Assembly (NCBI GenBank): GCA_003212795.1
Contig: QCOV01000004.1
Span: 11,762-75,761, forward strand
Length of the DNA stretch: 64,000 nt
DNA from: OCS116 cluster bacterium AG-435-F03
GTDB taxonomy: Bacteria; Pseudomonadota; Alphaproteobacteria; MED-G09
Reading direction: 5' to 3'
This document shows, in pieces, positions 18,269 through 26,622 of the stretch (position 1 is the first letter of the stretch; each line of letters opens with the position of its first letter). Both the position numbers and the translations under genes were made by a program. The notes below the pieces were generated by a model that ran no database searches, was not told where the DNA came from, and worked only from the letters and a program-made list of their open reading frames with translations.

Positions 18269-19337
18269 TCTTATTTATCAACTCACCTACATCCTTATAA
18301 ATTAAACAGGCCATAAGGATAAGACCAATATAACCTATAGAAGGATATATAAGGTTAATAAGCTGACCAAAAGGTAAAAGGTTTCCACCAAACCAACAAA
18401 TTAAAGTTAAAGATATGGCTAACAATCTAAAGCGTAAAGTATGCTCATCAGCAAAGCGTCTACAAATTGTCCACATTAAAGGTGTAACTGTTGTATAAAT
18501 TCCAAGAAAAATAACAGCAGCAAAAATTGATCCATACACTGGAAAAACCTTTGTTGCTAATATAAGTATTGGAACTTCAGCGTCATAGACAGATTGAATA
18601 TTGCCCATAAGAGCTAAAACAACAATAGTCATAGCGCTTATAAAAAGAAATGGGCCAAGCAATGCTACGCCCTTGACCTCAAAATTACTTTTAATTGTTG
18701 CGCCCACTAAAGGTAAAAACCCATATAATCCAGGAAGAGAAAAAACAGCATATAAAATTGCAGAAAAAAACCAATTTTCAGAGGCTCTTAGGATTTCTAA
18801 TCCATCAGATAAAAGGATTCCCTCTTTTAATGACAATGAATCATCTAATATTGTGGAAACGGCAGTAGCTAAAGTAAGAATGACTATTATTGGCCCAATA
18901 ATTCCAAGCACTTCAATAATTTTATTTAAACCTAACAAAAGCGTAATAGTTGCACAAAATGCCATTAATCCTGATCCAAAAATGACAGGTAAACCATAAG
19001 CTTGTTCTAAAGTAGCTCCTACACCACCTAACATTACGCCGTAAACAGCAACAATCATAATCATAGTGTACCAAGTCATAAAAATACCAAGATAACGACC
19101 GCAAAAATGCCGGAAAGCATCCTCGTTAGTTCGAAGATCATTTTGTTTACCAGCTTTAAGCAATGAGAAACAGGTATAAATCATGAGAAAACCACAAATT
19201 AATAGACCTATTAATCCTTTACTTCCAAAACCAACAAAGAATTGCATGGCCTCCTGTCCAGTTGAAAAAGCGCCACCTATCAGTAATGCTATATATGCAC
19301 CTGAAATACTAAATATTCTAATCCATTGATTATTCAT
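18261..19337 (-). CDS. Polytopic membrane protein, transporter-like (YkvI-like?)
   Basis: 358 aa with 10 or more hydrophobic helices; overlaps neighbours by 8 nt. Confidence 0.4.
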   Translation of the reverse strand: MNNQWIRIFSISGAYIALLIGGAFSTGQEAMQFFVGFGSKGLIGLLICGFLMIYTCFSLLKAGKQNDLRTNEDAFRHFCGRYLGIFMTWYTMIMIVAVYGVMLGGVGATLEQAYGLPVIFGSGLMAFCATITLLLGLNKIIEVLGIIGPIIVILTLATAVSTILDDSLSLKEGILLSDGLEILRASENWFFSAILYAVFSLPGLYGFLPLVGATIKSNFEVKGVALLGPFLFISAMTIVVLALMGNIQSVYDAEVPILILATKVFPVYGSIFAAVIFLGIYTTVTPLMWTICRRFADEHTLRFRLLAISLTLICWFGGNLLPFGQLINLIYPSIGYIGLILMACLIYKDVGELINKTS

Positions 19338-20019
19338 AAAGATTATATAACCACATAACTGATCTACTATGATCTATAAACCCTGTATCTTTAGCAACCT
19401 CGGGATCTGACAGGGTTTCAAGGAACTTTTCTATATCAGAATAATAACCTTCTGCGGTACCTTCAAAATCAAATATATCTACTCCTGCTGAATTAGCAGC
19501 TTTCTCAGAAAATTCTTCATCAGCATGGAATTGCCTATAACCTTGTAAACCTGAAACATTTTCTCTTACATCGGCTGCATGATGATCTAACCAGTGTTCG
19601 TGCCAGTCTTTCCTAGACCATTCTAAAGGACGTCTTAAAACCATATTAAGAAATAAAGGTTCGCTTCCAGGAACAATTACATGTTCATCACCTACAAGAG
19701 CAGCACTTTTAGAAGCGTCAATTAAAGATCCTAATTTTTCCCCTATACCTTGTATTGCCTCAACAAGTGATTCATATGATGCGTCTTCAGACCTGAACTC
19801 TATTATATTATCAAAAGGTGGTTGCTCAGGTAAATCATCTGGTTGACCATCTTGAGGAACACTTGCAGTTGGATCATCTGGAACCCTTATTGCCCTTCTA
19901 AATTGTAAGTTAGGTAAATTATGATTTATAGACTTGCACTCTTTATTAAGAATATCATCTATTTTATCTCTATTATTAATATCTGAAGCACTTAATAATA
20001 ATTGTAATTTTTTAATCAT
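19330..20019 (-). CDS. Hypothetical protein with acidic/Pro-rich linker
   Basis: 229 aa ORF packed tightly in the operon; no family recognised. Confidence 0.35.
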   Translation of the reverse strand: MIKKLQLLLSASDINNRDKIDDILNKECKSINHNLPNLQFRRAIRVPDDPTASVPQDGQPDDLPEQPPFDNIIEFRSEDASYESLVEAIQGIGEKLGSLIDASKSAALVGDEHVIVPGSEPLFLNMVLRRPLEWSRKDWHEHWLDHHAADVRENVSGLQGYRQFHADEEFSEKAANSAGVDIFDFEGTAEGYYSDIEKFLETLSDPEVAKDTGFIDHSRSVMWLYNLYE

Positions 20020-20026
20020 AAAAACC

Positions 20027-20941
20027 TTAGTGGGAATAAGGAACTAACGGACCAGTTCTATATGTGCCTCTGGATAATTCAGTAGCCACACTTGGAGCTA
20101 TTGGTAACCAACCTAATTCACTACGTGCACGATCAGATGTAATAATACACTCAATACAAGATAAATCTGCAAGCTCACCAAGAGCTTCTCTAGCTTCCTC
20201 AAGAGGCCAATGAACTACCTCAATTCCTGGGCCGAAATAATCTGCAATTAAAGTTGCATAATCTTTACTGCATGTAACTTCATCAGAAGCTGCATTATAG
20301 ATACCTTGAGCAGACTCATTTGTTACTATTTTAAGATAAAGATCTGAAAGTGGATCTACATGTATTGTACTGACCAAATTAGTACCTTCACCAATATGAA
20401 GAGATTTTCCTGATTCTCGAGCTCTAAAAATTAATCCTGTAAGCCAACCCCCTGCATGACCATAAATTAAACCCGGCCTTACGCTAGCCCCTCTAATGCC
20501 ATTCTCTGACATGGCTACTACTTGCAAATCATGACGTGCGCGCCATGCTCGAAGAGGATGTGGATTTTCAATTGGTTCGCTCTCATCACGAGGAACACCT
20601 TTAGTATCATTGTAAACAACACTTGCGCTAGTTGTAACAAAAACCTTACCAGTATCTTTAAATGCCTCCTCAACTGCCAAAATGAAATTCGTATCTAGTT
20701 TTTCCATTTCCTCATCATGAGAAGCTCCAATATGTACAACAGCGTCACATTCATCTGCTGTTTCACTAATAATTTCTGTATCAGCAAAACCACCAGCAAT
20801 CCATTTAACATTATCTCTCTCTTCAAGATTAGGAATATGGTGAGGTCTAACGAGTGCATGGACCTCATGACCATTATTGACAAAATGATTTAGTGCATGG
20901 GCACCTGCATGACCAGTGCAGCCCGTCATTAATACTTTCAT
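20027..20941 (-). CDS. NAD(P)-dependent epimerase/dehydratase family (extended SDR)
   Basis: 'MKVLMTGCTGHAGAHAL' Rossmann motif. RBS 'GAGGAGGGG' lies 6 nt upstream of the ATG at 20941, so the longer ORF-track start at 20956 is unlikely. Confidence 0.6.
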   Translation of the reverse strand: MKVLMTGCTGHAGAHALNHFVNNGHEVHALVRPHHIPNLEERDNVKWIAGGFADTEIISETADECDAVVHIGASHDEEMEKLDTNFILAVEEAFKDTGKVFVTTSASVVYNDTKGVPRDESEPIENPHPLRAWRARHDLQVVAMSENGIRGASVRPGLIYGHAGGWLTGLIFRARESGKSLHIGEGTNLVSTIHVDPLSDLYLKIVTNESAQGIYNAASDEVTCSKDYATLIADYFGPGIEVVHWPLEEAREALGELADLSCIECIITSDRARSELGWLPIAPSVATELSRGTYRTGPLVPYSH

Positions 20942-21010
20942 AGAACCCCTCCTCATAAAAACTTAACTTAAAATAGAATATTAATTAATTCAACCGGAGG
21001 ATATGGTTCA

Positions 21011-21050
21011 CAAAAAAATAATGCCCAGAGTTTTGCAACTCTGAGCATTA
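21011..21050 (-). terminator. Rho-independent terminator downstream of the TonB-dependent receptor
   Basis: On the minus strand, 'TAATGCTCAGAGTTGCAAAACTCTGGGCATTA' forms an 11-bp stem (1 mismatch) with a 4-nt loop, followed by 'TTTTTTT'. Confidence 0.55.
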
Positions 21051-21072
21051 CCTCAATAAATTTTAATATTAG

Positions 21073-23436
21073 TTAAAATTTATAATTTAATTTAAGACCA
21101 TAATTTCTTCCTGGTAAAGGAACCTCATTTTTAACAAATGAAGCGTGATTTCTGGCCACTTCGTCAAGAAGATTCTTACCAAATAATGAGAAACTTATTT
21201 CATTTTGATTATTTAGAACAAAAGTCTTTTTTAAAGAGAAATCAAGCATTTCATAGGCTTCGGTTTCAGTTTCACCTTCACCAATATCATTTTGCTCTTC
21301 AACATCTTTATAAGTCAATCTTGCTAAAAGATTATCCTCTGAATAAGAAACAGTTATAATATTTCTTGCAGGTACAATTCTTGGGATATTCATACCATTC
21401 TTAAATTCACCTGTAACTGAGTCTCTGCCGAGTGATAAAGTAAGATTACCTCTATCAAAAGTAAAAATCTGACTTATTTCAAACTCATAACCTTCAAGTT
21501 CAGCATCTTTTTGTAGGAAGTTTGCTAAAATAAGACCACCATGGTCATCATGATCACCATGCTCTTCATGCTCTTCATGCTCTTCTTCCGTTTCATCTTG
21601 TAGATAGATGTAGTTATCAATGTCATTTTTGAAAATATTACCTCTAAAAGAGAAATTATTATTTTTATAAAATATATTCAAATCAATGTTGTTAGCACTC
21701 TCAGATTCAAGTTCTGTATTGCCAACTTCAAAGCGGCCAGTAACTAAATGAGCTCCATTCATATATAGCTCTACTGGTGATGGTGCTCTTTCAACTCTTG
21801 CTAGGCCTAGACTAACTGTAAAGTTATCATTAACTTCTCTCGAAAAATTAACAGCAAAACTTGTTTCGCTATAATCTTTATTAAAGTAGTCAATTTCCTC
21901 TTCATGTTCGTCTTCATCATGATGTTCGTCTTCATCGTGATGTTCGTCTTCATCATGATGTTCGTCTTCATCATGATGCTCTTCTTCATGATGAGCTAAT
22001 GAACCTTTACGAGAAATATCATCATACCTAATACCGAAATCAATATCTAATAATCCGAATTCTTTAGACAAATAATAACCAATGGATAATTCTTCATTAT
22101 CTGTTGGCCTCATAAAAGCTTCAGCACCAACTATAGAAATTTCTTCTTCTACATAATTGATAGATAATTTTTGCTTAACAACATCATTTGTTAAATCAAA
22201 AACAAAACCTAGTTCCTTGGATTTATTTTCAAAATTTGTTGGACCTTCAGCATGGCCATGTTCATCATGTTCATCTTCATCATGATGCTCTTCTTCATCG
22301 TGATGCTCTTCTTCATCGTGATGCTCTTCTTCAGCATGTTGCTCAGTATGAAGATAGTCTGAAGATCTAAAGAAATAATTAATTTTTTTCAGCCAAGAAC
22401 TATTAACTACATAAGAACCTTCAACATCAAAAATATCAGATTCTGTATTGGAAAAGATTCTTTCACCTTCATGTTCATCATGACCTTCATGTTCGTCTTC
22501 ATCATGATGCTCTTCTTCATCGTGATGCTCATCTTCATCATGATGCTCTTCTTTACCATGCATTCCATGATCTTCATGACCATCACCATGGAATGGAACA
22601 CCAAAAAGACTTTCAGAGTTCTTATAAGAAATACCGAAATATCCCCATTCACCTGTTTTTGAAATACCAAATCTTTGTGATGTTGACTCAAAGTCAGAGT
22701 TTTCTAAGTAACCAAGATTTTCTTCTTCGTGGTGCTCATCTTCATCGTGATGCTCATCTTCATCGTGATGCTCATCTTCATCGTGATGCTCATCCTCGGT
22801 ATGAATTATTGCACCATTTGGAATATCATAATTATCAAACTGAGAATCTTTATAAGCCAAACTTACATTGAAACCACCAATGTTATTTTGATAAGAAAAA
22901 CTTCCACTTTCTCCGTCGTTAACAGATTGGGTTTCTAAAGCAATATTAAATTTGGGTTCTTTAAAATCTTCTCTAGCAATTGTATTATCAATGATATTTA
23001 CTATGCCTCCAACAGTCCCACTAGAATATAGAAGTGATGATGGTCCTCTAACTATTTCTATTTGTTGAATATCATTTAAATCAACCTCATTCATATGATC
23101 GTCACCAATAGTAGAAACATCTCTCAGAGTTTTACCATTATTCATAATTCTAACTCTATTACCTGATAAACCACGAATGATAGGATGACCAACAGCTGCG
23201 CCAAAATCTGAAGATTGAATTCCAAGAAGATTATCAAGTGACTCACCTAAGCTAACTGTGGTGTCAAAAGTTGCATCATCTCCCCCAATTACATGAATTG
23301 GATCGTCTAGGTCTGATAGGTTTGTATCAATGTAAGATGATGTAACTATAATTTCATCTATCTCATTCGAATATATTTTTTCGTTGTGTATTATTAAAGT
23401 ACCCACAAACAAAAGTACTAAAAGTAAATTTTTCAA
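21073..23436 (-). CDS. TonB-dependent outer-membrane receptor with five His/Asp/Glu-rich (HHDEDE)n inserts
   Basis: TTG start with RBS 'AAAGGAGAT'. Signal peptide. TonB box 'DEIIVTSSY'. Plug and barrel organisation. C-terminal '...LKLNYKF' ending in Phe. The five His-rich inserts are listed as repeats below. Confidence 0.8.
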   Translation of the reverse strand: MKNLLLVLLFVGTLIIHNEKIYSNEIDEIIVTSSYIDTNLSDLDDPIHVIGGDDATFDTTVSLGESLDNLLGIQSSDFGAAVGHPIIRGLSGNRVRIMNNGKTLRDVSTIGDDHMNEVDLNDIQQIEIVRGPSSLLYSSGTVGGIVNIIDNTIAREDFKEPKFNIALETQSVNDGESGSFSYQNNIGGFNVSLAYKDSQFDNYDIPNGAIIHTEDEHHDEDEHHDEDEHHDEDEHHEEENLGYLENSDFESTSQRFGISKTGEWGYFGISYKNSESLFGVPFHGDGHEDHGMHGKEEHHDEDEHHDEEEHHDEDEHEGHDEHEGERIFSNTESDIFDVEGSYVVNSSWLKKINYFFRSSDYLHTEQHAEEEHHDEEEHHDEEEHHDEDEHDEHGHAEGPTNFENKSKELGFVFDLTNDVVKQKLSINYVEEEISIVGAEAFMRPTDNEELSIGYYLSKEFGLLDIDFGIRYDDISRKGSLAHHEEEHHDEDEHHDEDEHHDEDEHHDEDEHEEEIDYFNKDYSETSFAVNFSREVNDNFTVSLGLARVERAPSPVELYMNGAHLVTGRFEVGNTELESESANNIDLNIFYKNNNFSFRGNIFKNDIDNYIYLQDETEEEHEEHEEHGDHDDHGGLILANFLQKDAELEGYEFEISQIFTFDRGNLTLSLGRDSVTGEFKNGMNIPRIVPARNIITVSYSEDNLLARLTYKDVEEQNDIGEGETETEAYEMLDFSLKKTFVLNNQNEISFSLFGKNLLDEVARNHASFVKNEVPLPGRNYGLKLNYKF
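21538..21591 (-). repeat. Repeat tract 5 encoding 'TEEEHEEHEEHGDHDDHGG'
   Basis: Plus strand 'ctcttcatg' 9-nt unit repeated three times. Confidence 0.7.
21898..21996 (-). repeat. Repeat tract 4 encoding 'AHHEEEHHDEDEHHDEDEHHDEDEHHDEDEHEEE'
   Basis: Plus strand 'gttcgtcttcatcatgat' repeated four times, near-perfect. Confidence 0.85.
22249..22341 (-). repeat. Repeat tract 3 encoding 'HAEEEHHDEEEHHDEEEHHDEDEHDEHGHAEG'
   Basis: Plus strand 'gatgctcttcttcatcgt' repeated three times. Confidence 0.8.
22462..22587 (-). repeat. Repeat tract 2 encoding 'HGDGHEDHGMHGKEEHHDEDEHHDEEEHHDEDEHEGHDEHEGE'
   Basis: Imperfect tandem 18-nt units (catcatgatg/ctcttcttcatcgtgatg). Confidence 0.75.
22723..22803 (-). 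repeat. In-frame tandem 18-nt repeat tract 1 encoding 'HTEDEHHDEDEHHDEDEHHDEDEHHEEE'
   Basis: Plus strand shows 'gatgctcatcttcatcgt' repeated three times. Confidence 0.8.
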
Positions 23437-23473
23437 TTTTATCTCCTTTTTAAATTTACATAAGAAATGAAAT

Positions 23474-23758
23474 TTAAATTTGAGGAGGTCCTCTGGAGTA
23501 AAATTTAGAAATATTGTTGTCTAAAAATTGATTATCTACTTTCTGAATAAAATAAAAAGTAGTATGGAATTGATCCCCAAAAGTTGCTATTTGATTATCA
23601 AACTCAGGGGCAACATTAACACAAAAATCACAATCTATTTCTACAGACATATGATCATGATGATCATGATGTTCGTGCAATATCTCTTCGGCTGAAACCG
23701 AAGTAAAAAATAACAAAGCTATAAAGAAAGCCAGTGTTTTATTAGATAAATTGTGCAT
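23474..23758 (-). CDS. Small secreted His-rich protein (candidate periplasmic metal-binding partner of the receptor)
   Basis: Signal peptide 'MHNLSNKTLAFFIALLFFTSVSA', then 'EEILHEHHDHHDHMSVEIDCDFC'. The stop lies 37 nt upstream of the receptor start on the same strand. Confidence 0.5.
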   Translation of the reverse strand: MHNLSNKTLAFFIALLFFTSVSAEEILHEHHDHHDHMSVEIDCDFCVNVAPEFDNQIATFGDQFHTTFYFIQKVDNQFLDNNISKFYSRGPPQI

Positions 23759-23795
23759 AGCGAGTTAAATATTAAAGATATCGCATAAAGTCAAA

Positions 23796-24407
23796 CTATA
23801 TAAGCAATTCCTCTACTTGCCATAATGTGTCTTTTCCAAAGAATATTTGATCGCCGACAAAAAAAGTTGGTATACCAAAAACCCCTCTTTCAACAGCTGA
23901 TTCAGTATTAGATATTAGTTTTGCTTTAACATCTGGATCCTGCATTTGACTCATTAATTTATCCGCATCTAATCCTGATTCAAGAAATGCTTCTTTGATG
24001 ACTTCTGGATCATCCATTTTCTTGGGTTGCTCCCACATATGAACTAATACTTTATCTATATAATCTTCAAGATAGCCATCCATTTCAGCAGCAATTGCAC
24101 CTCTTATAATTTGTAAACTTATTACCGGAAAGTGCGGATTCATTTGAAAAGATTGTAAACCATGTCTTTCAATAAATCTCGTTATTTCAAGTGATTGGTA
24201 TTCTAATTTACCTTTTACCTCAGCAAATTGAACCATTGGTGGGTTGTTATTAGTAGCCTTAAATATACCTCCCAAGAGAACAGGAATATAATTAACTTTA
24301 GCACCCGTTTTTTCAGAAATTGATTTAAGCACTTTATGACTTAAATATGCATTTGGACTAGCAAAATCAAAATAAAAATCTACTTCTTTGGTCATCATCT
24401 TCTCCAA
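23796..24407 (-). CDS. DsbA-like thioredoxin-fold protein / 2-hydroxychromene-2-carboxylate isomerase family (kappa-class GST-like)
   Basis: N-terminal 'VDFYFDFASPNAYL' is characteristic of the HCCA isomerase/DsbA-like family; 203 aa. Confidence 0.55.
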   Translation of the reverse strand: MEKMMTKEVDFYFDFASPNAYLSHKVLKSISEKTGAKVNYIPVLLGGIFKATNNNPPMVQFAEVKGKLEYQSLEITRFIERHGLQSFQMNPHFPVISLQIIRGAIAAEMDGYLEDYIDKVLVHMWEQPKKMDDPEVIKEAFLESGLDADKLMSQMQDPDVKAKLISNTESAVERGVFGIPTFFVGDQIFFGKDTLWQVEELLI

Positions 24408-24496
24408 TATTACTTAATTATTAATATTATATATTTTAAATAGTTTAGAAAGAAATAATTAAGAGATAATTTGATTTATAATGATATTATTTAACT

Positions 24497-25399
24497 ATGA
24501 TCTATTTCTATTTAATCATTTTTTTATTTGTAAGTATTTTCTTTAAAATACCTATTTTAGCGATATTTGGTGGAATAATTTTTAGTCTGATGTTTAAAAC
24601 TAAAAATGAATTTATTACGAAAAAATATTCAACAATTATTTTGCAGACTGGAATAGTTCTTCTTGGCTTTTCAATTAATTATCAATCAGCAATTAATTCT
24701 AGCTTGCAATACATGCCTGCAATATCAACATTTGTTGTATTAACTTTTACATTTGTTTTTTTATTAGGTCTTTCACTTAAAATTGATAAAAATTATTCTC
24801 TTTTAGTTGCTTCTGGATCATCAATTTGTGGTGGAACGGCAATGGTATCTATTGCACCAATTATTAAATCAAAAAATGAAGATTTAGCTGCAGCTTTAGC
24901 AATAATATTCATTCTAAATGCCTTAGGAGTATTTCTTTTTCCATTTATAGGGGAATTATTAAATTTATCTCAAAGTCAATTTGGAGTATGGGCCGCGACT
25001 GTAATTCATGATACTAGCGCGGTCATAGGCGCTTCAATGAGTTACGGGTATGAGTCTCTGGAGACTGCATCAACATTAAAACTAGGGCGAACTTTATGGT
25101 TAATACCATTAATTATGTTAATAAGCATAACTGAGAAGAGTGATAAAAAACATTTTCCATTCCCAATGTTTGTTATTTTTTTTATTTTAGCAATTATTTC
25201 AGGGTCTTATTTCAATACAACTATAGAAAAAGAAATTATCAGAAATGTTAGCCAAATTTTGCTCCTTATTGGTTTATTTTCGGTTGGAACACAAATAACA
25301 TTTAAGAATTTGAAAAATATTGATTCAAAGAAATTAATTTATCCAATTATTTCATGGATATTGATAATACCTTTTTCTTTTTTTATTGTTTTTCTCTAG
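24497..25399 (+). CDS. YeiH/UPF0324-like putative sulfate exporter family membrane protein
   Basis: 300 aa polytopic membrane protein; 'GVWAATVIHDTSAVIGA' resembles the YeiH family. Confidence 0.45.
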   Translation: MIYFYLIIFLFVSIFFKIPILAIFGGIIFSLMFKTKNEFITKKYSTIILQTGIVLLGFSINYQSAINSSLQYMPAISTFVVLTFTFVFLLGLSLKIDKNYSLLVASGSSICGGTAMVSIAPIIKSKNEDLAAALAIIFILNALGVFLFPFIGELLNLSQSQFGVWAATVIHDTSAVIGASMSYGYESLETASTLKLGRTLWLIPLIMLISITEKSDKKHFPFPMFVIFFILAIISGSYFNTTIEKEIIRNVSQILLLIGLFSVGTQITFKNLKNIDSKKLIYPIISWILIIPFSFFIVFL

Positions 25400-25431
25400 T
25401 TTAAGGCGAAGTCTTTTGAAATAGATATTTC

Positions 25432-26622
25432 TTAATCATTTTTAACTACTAATTTACCTTCATCTATCAATCTTTGTTGTAGTGACTTTTCATAACCAAG
25501 ATCCGAAAGTATCTCTAAGCCATGTTCACCTAATTTTGGTGCTGGTCTTACAATTTCACTTTCTGTTTCACTAAATCTTGCAGCCGGGCGTGCCTGCCTT
25601 ATTTGACCAAATCCATCAAAGTTATCATACAAAATTGTTTCATTTGCAGTTATTTGCTCATGATCCATTAATTCCATCCTATCAAGCAATGGGGCGCAAG
25701 GAACTCCTTCCTTTTGAAATCTTTCAAGTAAATCGTCACTATTCCACTTAGAAATTTCTTCTCCAGTCAGCTCTTTTCTCTCTTGTGCATTTACCATGCG
25801 AGAAGAAGAGTCTGAGAATCTTTCATCATCTATCAAATCTTCTCTGTCCAGAGCCCTGCACATTCCTCGCCATTCAGCATCAGAAACAGCACCAGCAGTG
25901 ATATAACGATCTTTTGCTTTATAAATTAAATCTTGTGTTCCTTGAATCTTTCGAACATCAAATTCCTTATCCTCGTAAACTAAACCAGCCATACCTTCAG
26001 GCCAGAAAAAAGCGAGCATACTATCTAACATTGATAAACTAATATGCTGCCCAGTGCCTGATACCTCTCTAGCATAGAGAGCTGATGAAACTGCTTGAGC
26101 AGCTGTCAATGCTGTCGTCTTATCAGCAATAATTATACGGAACATTTTAGGTCTTCCAGTATCTCTATCAGCTTGAATATCTGTTGCTCCCGATAAAGCT
26201 TGAATAACTGGATCATATACTCGTGATTGAGAGTAAGGACCTTTTTCACCAAAACCACTAATTGATAAATAAATAATTTTTTTATTTAACTTTCGAATGA
26301 CTTTTTCGCTAAAACCCATTCGATCAATGGCTCCTGGTCTAAAATTTTGCATGAAGACATCTGCATCTTCAACTAGTTTTAACAAAATTTCTTTTCCTTC
26401 TTTTGATTTTAAATCAATCGCTAATGATTTCTTACCTCTATTTACGGAGTAAAATGGTGCATTTACACCATTATGAGGCGTTGCCATATGTCGAACTTGA
26501 TCCCCAATAACTGGCTCAACTTTAATTACCTCTGCACCCTGGTCGGCCAAAATCATTGAGCACATTGGTCCTGATACCATACTTGTAAGATCAATTATTT
26601 TTATGCCTTTAAGTGGTCCCAT
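25432..26622 (-). CDS. CoA-transferase family III (CaiB/BaiF)
   Basis: N-terminal 'GPLKGIKIIDLTSMVSGPMCSMILADQGAEVIKVE' is a canonical CaiB/BaiF start. Confidence 0.7.
   Translation of the reverse strand: MGPLKGIKIIDLTSMVSGPMCSMILADQGAEVIKVEPVIGDQVRHMATPHNGVNAPFYSVNRGKKSLAIDLKSKEGKEILLKLVEDADVFMQNFRPGAIDRMGFSEKVIRKLNKKIIYLSISGFGEKGPYSQSRVYDPVIQALSGATDIQADRDTGRPKMFRIIIADKTTALTAAQAVSSALYAREVSGTGQHISLSMLDSMLAFFWPEGMAGLVYEDKEFDVRKIQGTQDLIYKAKDRYITAGAVSDAEWRGMCRALDREDLIDDERFSDSSSRMVNAQERKELTGEEISKWNSDDLLERFQKEGVPCAPLLDRMELMDHEQITANETILYDNFDGFGQIRQARPAARFSETESEIVRPAPKLGEHGLEILSDLGYEKSLQQRLIDEGKLVVKND

Follow-up and report, generated by a model that had tools for sequence, protein, structure and literature searches.

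Copy-number-variable minisatellites encode His/Asp/Glu-rich tracts in five predicted surface loops of a ZnuD-like TonB-dependent receptor of marine bacteria

The DNA considered here was a stretch of 64,000 nucleotides (nt) from OCS116 cluster bacterium AG-435-F03 (contig QCOV01000004.1, positions 11,762 to 75,761). This whole stretch is called the window, and all coordinates are positions in it unless stated otherwise. Its minus strand carried a gene for a TonB-dependent receptor related to ZnuD, in which five tracts rich in His, Asp and Glu were encoded by head-to-tail DNA repeats of 18 or 9 nt. These repeats were all in frame, and their copy number differed between nearly identical relatives. 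A short conserved open reading frame (ORF), resembling metal-sensing leader peptides, directly preceded the gene. The receptor gene and its repeats are listed first; arrays are those reported by Tandem Repeats Finder, amino acids (aa) are numbered along the receptor, and loop names follow the structural model presented below.

21073..23436, minus strand: ZnuD-like TonB-dependent receptor gene, ORF of 787 aa with a TTG start and an AAGGAG ribosome-binding site ahead of it.
22720..22797, minus strand: tract 1, aa 214-239, EDEHHD x4, predicted loop L2, 18-nt unit GAG CAT CAC GAT GAA GAT; array at 22721-22794 (period 18, 4.1 copies, 96% matches).
22468..22590, minus strand: tract 2, aa 283-323, HGDGHEDHGMHGK followed by EEHHDE units (units at aa 296-323), predicted loop L3; array at 22496-22553 (period 18, 3.2 copies, 90% matches).
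22257..22344, minus strand: tract 3, aa 365-393, EEEHHD x3 (aa 369-393), predicted loop L4; array at 22262-22344 (period 18, 4.6 copies, 89% matches).
21895..21993, minus strand: tract 4, aa 482-514, HHDEDE x4, predicted loop L6, unit CAT CAT GAT GAA GAC GAA; array at 21904-21994 (period 18, 5.1 copies, 93% matches).
21537..21597, minus strand: tract 5, aa 614-632, EEH x3 followed by GDHDDH, predicted loop L8, 9-nt unit; array at 21540-21585 (period 9, 5.1 copies, 86% matches).

The receptor carried a signal peptide and a TonB box (DEIIVTS) in addition to its plug domain and a barrel of 22 strands. Both domains passed their Pfam gathering thresholds (PF07715 Plug with 62.4 bits for a cutoff of 23.9, PF00593 barrel with 83.5 bits for a cutoff of 27), and the protein belongs to the TonB-dependent receptor superfamily. 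The exact sequence was not on record in a look-up of identical proteins.

All five tracts were located in this single ORF. The commonest unit was E-H-H-D-E-D, and about 41 His residues were distributed over the five loops as His-His pairs flanked by carboxylates. Direct reading of the DNA uncovered three exact copies of gttcgtcttcatcatgat and one copy with a single mismatch at 21906-21977, and two exact copies of gatgctcatcttcatcgt plus one with a single mismatch at 22731-22784. An earlier note, made from the sequence of the window, had described His-rich inserts built from tandem units of 9 to 18 nt, the fifth tract using a 9-nt unit and every unit being a multiple of three; its units, counts and coordinates proved right to within a few bases. 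As indicated by the distribution of repeats with a Tandem Repeats Finder score of at least 50, 11 of the 13 such rows in the window fell in the receptor gene. The receptor tracts were thus the only repeat hotspot of an otherwise streamlined genome, which displayed almost no tandem repeats elsewhere. Short ORFs running through the repeats on the plus strand were by-products of the stop-free repeats.

Codon usage in the genes of the window was AT-rich and strongly biased (CAT 84%, GAT 86% and GAA 74%). Part of the DNA identity between units was therefore expected from a periodic protein. The observed identity went beyond this expectation in two respects. Same-codon pairs in register amounted to 70, for 53.9 expected from synonymous shuffling within tracts (none of 20,000 shuffles reached 70), and pairs of the minor codons CAC, GAC and GAG in register amounted to 16, for 3.5 expected from the codon usage of the window (none of 20,000 simulations). 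Minor codons recurred at matching positions of the unit, as in GAG-CAT-CAC-GAT-GAA-GAT, encountered three times. Duplication of DNA therefore underlies the units, which are more than a by-product of codon bias in a periodic protein.

The window belongs to the PS1/OCS116 clade of marine Alphaproteobacteria, in which the closest orthologs were found, at 95% (locus L001), 91%, 90%, 85%, 81% and 80% identity. A first homology search was swamped by low-complexity words; its best match reached 73% and close relatives were missed. A genome scan (one genome per species) and a metagenome scan recovered orthologs at 80-95%, the metagenomes adding 17 PS1-type sequences. Copy numbers were compared among 27 PS1-type orthologs, of which 26 were intact, while L096 was cut by its contig end. 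Internal length differences among the 27 proteins were all located in the tracts, except for a 7-aa insert after the signal peptide, and mostly corresponded to whole numbers of units. Tract 1 measured 27, 33 or 39 aa (3, 4 or 5 units), tract 2 measured 30-45 aa (1-4 units), tract 3 measured 28, 29, 34 or 35 aa, tract 4 measured 21, 33, 39 or 44 aa (1-5 units) and tract 5 measured 19, 22 or 25 aa (3-aa steps). No frameshifted allele was encountered in this set.

Seven pairs of orthologs displayed 98.3-99.8% nucleotide identity outside the tracts, and six of them differed by one to three clean unit insertions or deletions (indels). The pairs were the following.

L094/L097: 99.8% outside tracts, difference of 12 aa in tract 2.
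L082/L083: 99.7% outside tracts, differences of 6 aa in tract 2 and 18 aa in tract 4.
L004/L081: 99.7% outside tracts, tract differences of 6, 6 and 3 aa.
L007/L092: 99.2% outside tracts, tract difference of 6 aa.
L085/L086: 98.6% outside tracts, tract differences of 6 and 6 aa.
L002/L003: 98.6% outside tracts, tract differences of 12 and 6 aa.
L006/L088: 99.8% outside tracts, no tract difference.

Codon listings of these pairs displayed clean insertions or deletions of 18, 36 or 54 nt with matching flanks. Over the seven pairs, 11 indel events were counted in tracts, for about 87 substitutions in the ~1.86 kb of non-tract sequence available per pair. The tracts of one gene thus changed length about once for every eight substitutions elsewhere in that gene, a rate that is relative (indels versus substitutions) and not an absolute one per generation. 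The earlier note had suspected a slippage-prone locus whose copy number would vary without frameshift, and had held identical counts with divergent units to be the sign of ancient, fixed repeats. The opposite was found among the orthologs: counts varied by whole units between near-identical pairs, and the units were homogenised.

The feature extended well beyond the PS1 clade. Distant relatives at 40-57% identity were found in SAR86, SAR92/Porticoccaceae and Halieaceae, and others at about 28% identity in Colwellia, Pseudoalteromonas and Microbulbifer. Tracts rich in His, Asp and Glu occupied the same positions in all 30 homologs inspected, down to about 50% identity, a few of them registering four of the five. 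Tract length, composition and period differed from one lineage to another (e.g. HEGEE x5, EEEHGDH x3 or DDDH x7). Since positions were conserved while units differed, the loop positions must be old, and the arrays they hold young and repeatedly rebuilt. Over 155 loci, array density was 1.54 per kb inside receptor genes versus 0.057 per kb in their flanks, and 546 of the 547 non-overlapping arrays inside receptor genes had a period divisible by 3; periods ranged from 9 to 54 and were most often 18. In marine metagenomes, more than 4,000 family matches were present among the scored candidates, with clusters of up to 171 sequences. Many deposited family members (clusters P0184, P0266, P0274-P0288 and P0290) were C-terminal fragments starting at a His-rich tract or just past it; some were located on contigs of more than 100 kb, and such fragments could represent either contig ends or reading frames disrupted at the repeats.

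Turnover within tracts was indicated by comparison of PS1 units. Units of the same tract displayed 1.68 differences per 18 nt within a genome versus 2.53 between genomes, which points to homogenisation within tracts. Units of different tracts displayed 2.36 differences within a genome and 2.66 between genomes, a gap too small for exchange or gene conversion between tracts to be claimed. Near-identity of units, read in the earlier note as a sign of recent expansion or ongoing recombination, accordingly stood for units of the same tract; between tracts, the resemblance was weaker and the signal of recombination weak.

Direct repeats of 18 nt in three to five copies are classic substrates for slipped-strand mispairing or direct-repeat recombination, and the clean unit indels fit either process. 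Units would be gained and lost through replication slippage or unequal recombination between direct repeats. Copy-number change is rapid compared with point substitution, so that near-identical strains come to differ in loop length while the units of a tract stay homogenised. With unit lengths always divisible by 3, such changes leave the protein intact and alter nothing but the length of the loop.

Secondary structure may help slippage. His-His-Asp written in common codons yields a 10-nt palindrome, CATCATGATG, which was present in the unit of tract 4. As single-stranded DNA, tract 4 (21895-21996) was predicted to form nested 10-bp hairpins (-18.5 kcal/mol, z -6.5) and gave seven 'terminator-like' matches, while tract 1, which uses CAC, did not fold (z -0.3). 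A requirement for hairpins was ruled out, tract 1 without a fold and tract 4 with one being both variable. Codon choice in these units followed a pattern of its own. In the window (21895-22797) and 13 PS1-clade orthologs, 111 of 151 units spelled His-His-Asp as CATCACGAT or CATCATGAC. The version made of common codons throughout, CATCATGAT, forms the palindrome together with the next G; it accounted for only 17% of the units, for about 60% expected, and both C-ending codons occurred together in only five of the 151. This pattern looks like avoidance of the perfect palindrome.

Known kinds of variation include simple-sequence contingency loci and, in surface proteins of bacteria, in-frame minisatellites of the variable-number tandem repeat (VNTR) type. 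The receptor tracts resembled both in having head-to-tail units in a predicted surface-exposed protein region, a strain-variable copy number and a likely origin by slipped-strand mispairing or unequal recombination. On/off switching at classical contingency loci relies on homopolymers or on units that are not multiples of 3, which give frameshifted off alleles. The receptor tracts differed from them, as almost all arrays were in frame and the PS1 orthologs displayed no frameshifted allele, which argues for graded loop length rather than phase variation. The receptor repeats were further set apart by being located in loops of a transporter barrel, encoding putative metal ligands and residing in a streamlined genome.

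An AlphaFold2 model of the receptor was built from a 43-sequence alignment of the family. The tracts fell between model strands b3/b4, b5/b6, b7/b8, b11/b12 and b15/b16, whereas the alternate connections (b2/b3, b4/b5 and so on) were short, with 2-7 residues, like periplasmic turns. In the standard topology of TonB-dependent receptors, the tract-bearing connections are extracellular loops L2, L3, L4, L6 and L8. The model thus places the five tracts in surface loops, and their low predicted local confidence (pLDDT below 50) is consistent with disorder. Tract 2 started where the alignment with ZnuD reached the start of loop 3 ('PAHSHEYDD'), so that by alignment it takes the place of ZnuD loop 3, which is rich in His, Asp and Glu. 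The ZnuD loop has two clusters of these residues, shifts conformation with zinc and was termed part of a 'fishing net' dragging zinc to a buried site (PMC4557270).

ZnuD was clearly the closest characterised relative, as judged from sequence and predicted fold. The top NCBIfam model was ZnuD (NF038289, zinc piracy receptor) with 220.2 bits. By sequence, the best match in the PDB was ZnuD of N. meningitidis (4rdr, E 4.7e-39, or 3.6e-58 with the family profile). The best fold match of the AlphaFold2 model was again ZnuD (E 8.5e-31, TM 0.73-0.84), followed by PhuR and OprC. Assignment to haem/haemoglobin receptors was ruled out, TIGR01785 and TIGR01786 scoring 110 and 117 bits for cutoffs of 317 and 324. 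The buried zinc ion of ZnuD is bound by Asp99, His100, Glu340 and His499 (PMC4557270). Three of these four ligands had aligned counterparts in the receptor, all invariant in the family alignment and verified in the translation.

23095..23100, minus strand: Asp113-His114 at the plug apex, aligned to ZnuD zinc ligands Asp99-His100.
21748..21750, minus strand: His563 in '...MNGAHLVTGRFEVGN', aligned to ZnuD zinc ligand His499.

The receptor shared with ZnuD (PDB 4rdr/4rdt/4rvw; PMC4557270) the plug and 22-strand barrel, the Asp-His at the plug apex with the barrel His (zinc ligands in ZnuD), and a flexible His/Asp/Glu-rich loop 3 for which metal capture has been proposed. The two differed in several respects. 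Identity was only about 20%; His/Asp/Glu tracts occupied five loops instead of one; and the tracts were regular DNA-level tandem repeats of variable copy number, whereas ZnuD was called a highly conserved surface protein by its authors (PMC4557270). The host of the receptor is a free-living ocean oligotroph, that of ZnuD a pathogen.

The conserved ORF preceding the receptor gene displayed the following features.

23474..23758, minus strand: upstream ORF of 94 aa with a signal-peptide-like N terminus, ending 37 nt before the receptor gene.
23651..23677, minus strand: His-rich stretch HEHHDHHDH, partly a 9-nt repeat (23651-23671, period 9, 2.3 copies, 100% in Tandem Repeats Finder).
23621..23632, minus strand: CxxC (C43-D-F-C46), with C43 invariant and C46 in at least 90% of alignment A2.
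23483..23494, minus strand: arrest-like motif R89-G-P-P92, two residues before the stop, with R89, P91 and P92 invariant.

In 118 of about 155 loci (e.g. L001:5678-5962, L011, L030, L074:5600-5887 and L072:4970-5323, in coordinates of those loci), the receptor gene was immediately preceded by a homologous or similar small ORF of the same orientation; no other conserved neighbour was common to more than 25 loci. The ten closest ORFs of the PS1 clade were all 94 aa long, more distant ones 90-93 aa. Of the 118, 94 had R[AG]PP within 1-4 residues of their end and 93 had a CxxC, with 40-43 residues between the two motifs (42 in the window). Pfam, NCBIfam and homology searches gave the window ORF no significant family, its homologs carrying no name. 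The gathering score of DUF2946 (PF11162) was not reached (E 0.2, 12.9 bits for 23.7), and one of 16 members matched that model. The ORF is therefore called CruR-like by motif architecture only.

CruR is a DUF2946 peptide encoded in the Bordetella bp2923-bfrG locus. The nascent peptide stalls the ribosome at a C-terminal RAPP, and copper sensed via CxxC relieves the stall, which controls the downstream TonB-dependent transporter (PMC9426467). The upstream ORF likewise encodes a small exported-type peptide, opens the operon, with the gene of a TonB-dependent transporter immediately after it, and combines CxxC with a RAPP-type motif 1-4 residues from the C terminus at a conserved spacing. It departs from CruR in this spacing (40-43 versus 45), in displaying RGPP rather than RAPP in the window, in its additional His-rich stretch ahead of CxxC, in the gap to the next gene (37 versus 162 nt) and in its downstream transporter, ZnuD-like here and OprC/BfrG-like for CruR. 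Given the short gap, Rho-dependent termination of the Bordetella type is not obviously applicable. By analogy, expression of the receptor is probably controlled by metal through this ORF, whose sequence suggests that it may represent an undescribed, possibly zinc-sensing branch of CruR-type regulators.

Other elements of this region were considered. A hairpin masking the ribosome-binding site at the junction of the two genes was predicted in the window (z -2.1) and was unsupported by a 12-sequence consensus fold. A TTGACT motif after the stop codon of the upstream DsbA-like gene (window 23759-23795) was conserved in L001-L004, L082-L090 and L096. An AT-rich -10-like element (TATTTA in the window) ended a few bases before the ATG of the upstream ORF, with no Shine-Dalgarno sequence visible, and the transcript may be leaderless or nearly so. 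The only Fur-like match near the receptor gene was the His-codon repeat CATCATGATCATCATGATC (23651-23669, minus strand), which agreed with the Fur-box consensus in 15 of its 19 nt; it was considered spurious, probably a coincidence of His and Asp codons in the ORF.

The explanation favoured here, and held to be fairly probable as a whole, is that of a ZnuD-like receptor with five minisatellite-encoded His/Asp/Glu loops, whose length changes by gain and loss of units and which capture metal for a buried site. Each His-His pair with its flanking carboxylates would form a weak site for divalent metal. Together, the five loops would make up a multivalent, low-affinity capture 'net' for scarce metal, and the number of units would set the number of sites. 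Captured metal would be handed over to a buried site like that of ZnuD, with Asp113/His114 (plug apex) and His563 as ligands, and TonB-driven import would follow. As judged from homology and composition, the loops probably act in metal capture. Other metal-handling proteins with His-rich flexible loops are ZnuA (cited in PMC4557270) and, going by the title of a paper, Hpn/Hpn-like of H. pylori. The tracts resemble such loops in being His/Asp/Glu segments of low complexity, for which capture or buffering of divalent metals is assumed; these other proteins are periplasmic or cytoplasmic, in contrast to the predicted location of the tracts in five outer-membrane surface loops with strain-level variation in copy number.

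The most likely substrate, as suggested by sequence relationships, is Zn(II), Cu being possible. Zinc is favoured because of the relationship to ZnuD, the conserved ligands and Zur-like boxes in relatives. Gammaproteobacterial relatives displayed an approximately fivefold enrichment of Zur-box-like palindromes in the upstream 600 nt, such boxes being found in some of these relatives only. Two matches were perfect; in Pseudoteredinibacter, one of the two preceded a CxxC...RAPP leader ORF by about 60 nt. Four SAR86 loci (L043, L044, L125 and L152) shared TGTGATG(C/A)TATAATA just upstream of the leader ORF, about 346 nt before the receptor start; this element could be a weak Zur-like operator or a -10 region.

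Several points weigh against the favoured explanation. The NCBIfam score of 220.2 bits lay far under the curated cutoff of 950 bits, so the receptor is not a ZnuD ortholog and was filed as ZnuD-like. The segment around Glu340 of ZnuD gave no alignment to the receptor in sequence and profile alignments, and no Zur box TGTTATNNNATAACA with up to two mismatches was found in window 19000-26000. Quality of the structural model was moderate (mean pLDDT 63, about 80 in barrel strands and below 50 in the tracts). The searched literature held no description of this marine receptor family, including metal-binding or transport work, and nothing on repeat variation in such receptors. The evidence on mutation rate is relative, and single copy numbers of arrays of 70-90 nt could be mis-assembled. 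The precedent of CruR, being copper-responsive, keeps copper a live alternative. Finally, the variation in copy number may be selectively neutral.

Neutrality is the alternative that survives best and is a serious one, although given somewhat less than even chances. According to it, the tracts vary as disordered, weakly constrained loops that drift within broad length limits, without any role in tuning or evasion. Such a reading agrees with their predicted disorder, with the free variation of composition, unit length and copy number between lineages while positions were kept, and with the confinement of copy number to about 1-5 units, as would result from mutation balanced by loose purifying selection. 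Conservation of the five positions and of His content over alpha- and gammaproteobacteria, down to about 50% identity, argues that the loops themselves are under selection. Neutral drift would in any case concern only the reason why length varies, not the nature of the feature.

Import of copper instead of zinc, by a copper-responsive uptake cassette like cruR-bfrG of Bordetella, is rather unlikely and is nevertheless worth keeping in view. The upstream ORF displays CruR hallmarks (CxxC, RAPP-type motif, spacing and first position before a TonB-dependent transporter), OprC copper transporters were among the next-best fold matches, and His/Asp/Glu sites bind Cu(II) as well. Against copper stand the closer relationship to ZnuD, the invariant Asp-His and His ligands and the Zur-like boxes upstream in some relatives. 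In Caulobacter, an operon for zinc efflux under Zur control likewise begins with DUF2946 genes, so this type of upstream ORF is not exclusive to copper.

A more far-reaching proposal, quite unlikely in its entirety, sees in the loop minisatellites a device for evolvability that is itself maintained. Slippage-prone codon arrays in five surface loops, in a receptor family that is among the most widespread in ocean oligotrophs, would then be kept by selection as standing variation in the number of sites for metal capture. The lengths of alleles would follow trace-metal conditions (Zn, Cu, Co) or pressure from phages, and the cassette would be switched by the previously undescribed His-rich, possibly zinc-sensing CruR-type branch. 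If so, populations that are otherwise repeat-free and streamlined (PS1, SAR86, SAR92 and Halieaceae) would hold standing variation in loop length.

Selection for surface diversity, i.e. escape from phages or grazers and not metal acquisition, could also maintain the length variation; this appears improbable. Phages commonly use TonB-dependent receptors, the model exposes the variable segments at the surface, and the receptor and upstream ORF form a local peak of divergence and an apparent recombination mosaic. Unit composition was nearly unchanged, always H, D and E, and would thus offer little new surface chemistry. Divergence in the plug part was largely synonymous, since the protein alignment is conserved there.

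That the differences in copy number are artefacts of short-read assembly was judged highly improbable. All comparison sequences were assembled data (short-read assemblies, single-cell genomes and metagenome-assembled genomes), k-mers in common use are about as long as the arrays (54-95 nt), and many database members were fragments starting at or just past a tract. Yet one exact protein was present on 21 contigs from several sources, a variant of it with three substitutions and two tract indels on eight contigs, and further exact alleles on 15, 7, 5 and 4 contigs. Random assembly error would hardly yield identical alleles in many independent assemblies. All five tracts agreed between L006 and L088, a single-cell genome and a Tara contig, and the differences elsewhere were clean unit indels with matching flanks. 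The 1-unit tract 4 of L082 is shorter than typical final k-mers, and collapse should not be able to yield it. Clusters at 90% identity or more in other lineages displayed full-length members differing in length only in the tracts, as in one example with lengths of 777, 773, 759, 755 and 747 aa at 98.8-99.4% identity. The weakest alternative, ancient and fixed repeats kept by selection on the protein, with DNA similarity due to codon bias alone, has practically no standing, for although the bias of this AT-rich genome by itself yields much identity between units, it is contradicted by the excess of minor and same codons in register and already refuted by near-identical strains with different copy numbers.

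Parts of the favoured explanation were known already, namely the His/Asp/Glu capture loops of ZnuD, in-frame repeat variation in surface proteins and CruR-type leaders before TonB-dependent transporters. Their combination in a widespread marine family, with in-frame minisatellites in five predicted loops, strain polymorphism and a His-rich CruR-like leader, was not described in the searched literature. In genomes that are streamlined and otherwise shun repeats, the receptor tracts stand out as a clear instance of minisatellites within a coding sequence. Free zinc and copper are very low in surface seawater, and their uptake by abundant small heterotrophs is poorly known. If the loops capture metal, loop length would be a directly countable and rapidly changing genetic marker. 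Whole arrays fit within reads of 150 nt, which would allow the lengths of alleles to be set against measured concentrations of metals along ocean transects. With the upstream ORF, a ZnuD-like receptor family would join those known to be preceded by metal-sensing leaders of the CruR type.

Two further features of the locus were observed in PS1-clade relatives. Most orthologs carried the 7-aa insert (e.g. SEEKVIEP) between signal peptide and TonB box (L002-L007 compared), which was absent from L001 and from the window receptor (window ~23340-23360, minus strand). In region 19330-25399, the flanking genes (EthD-like, epimerase, DsbA-like and membrane protein) displayed 94-97% nucleotide identity to several relatives, while the 5' part of the receptor gene was 80-87% and the upstream ORF 71-83% identical to those relatives (L001-L004, L081-L086 and L096 compared). 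The upstream ORF of the window was nearest to that of L096 (95%) and its receptor to that of L001 (96-97%), affinities that suggest a recombination mosaic.

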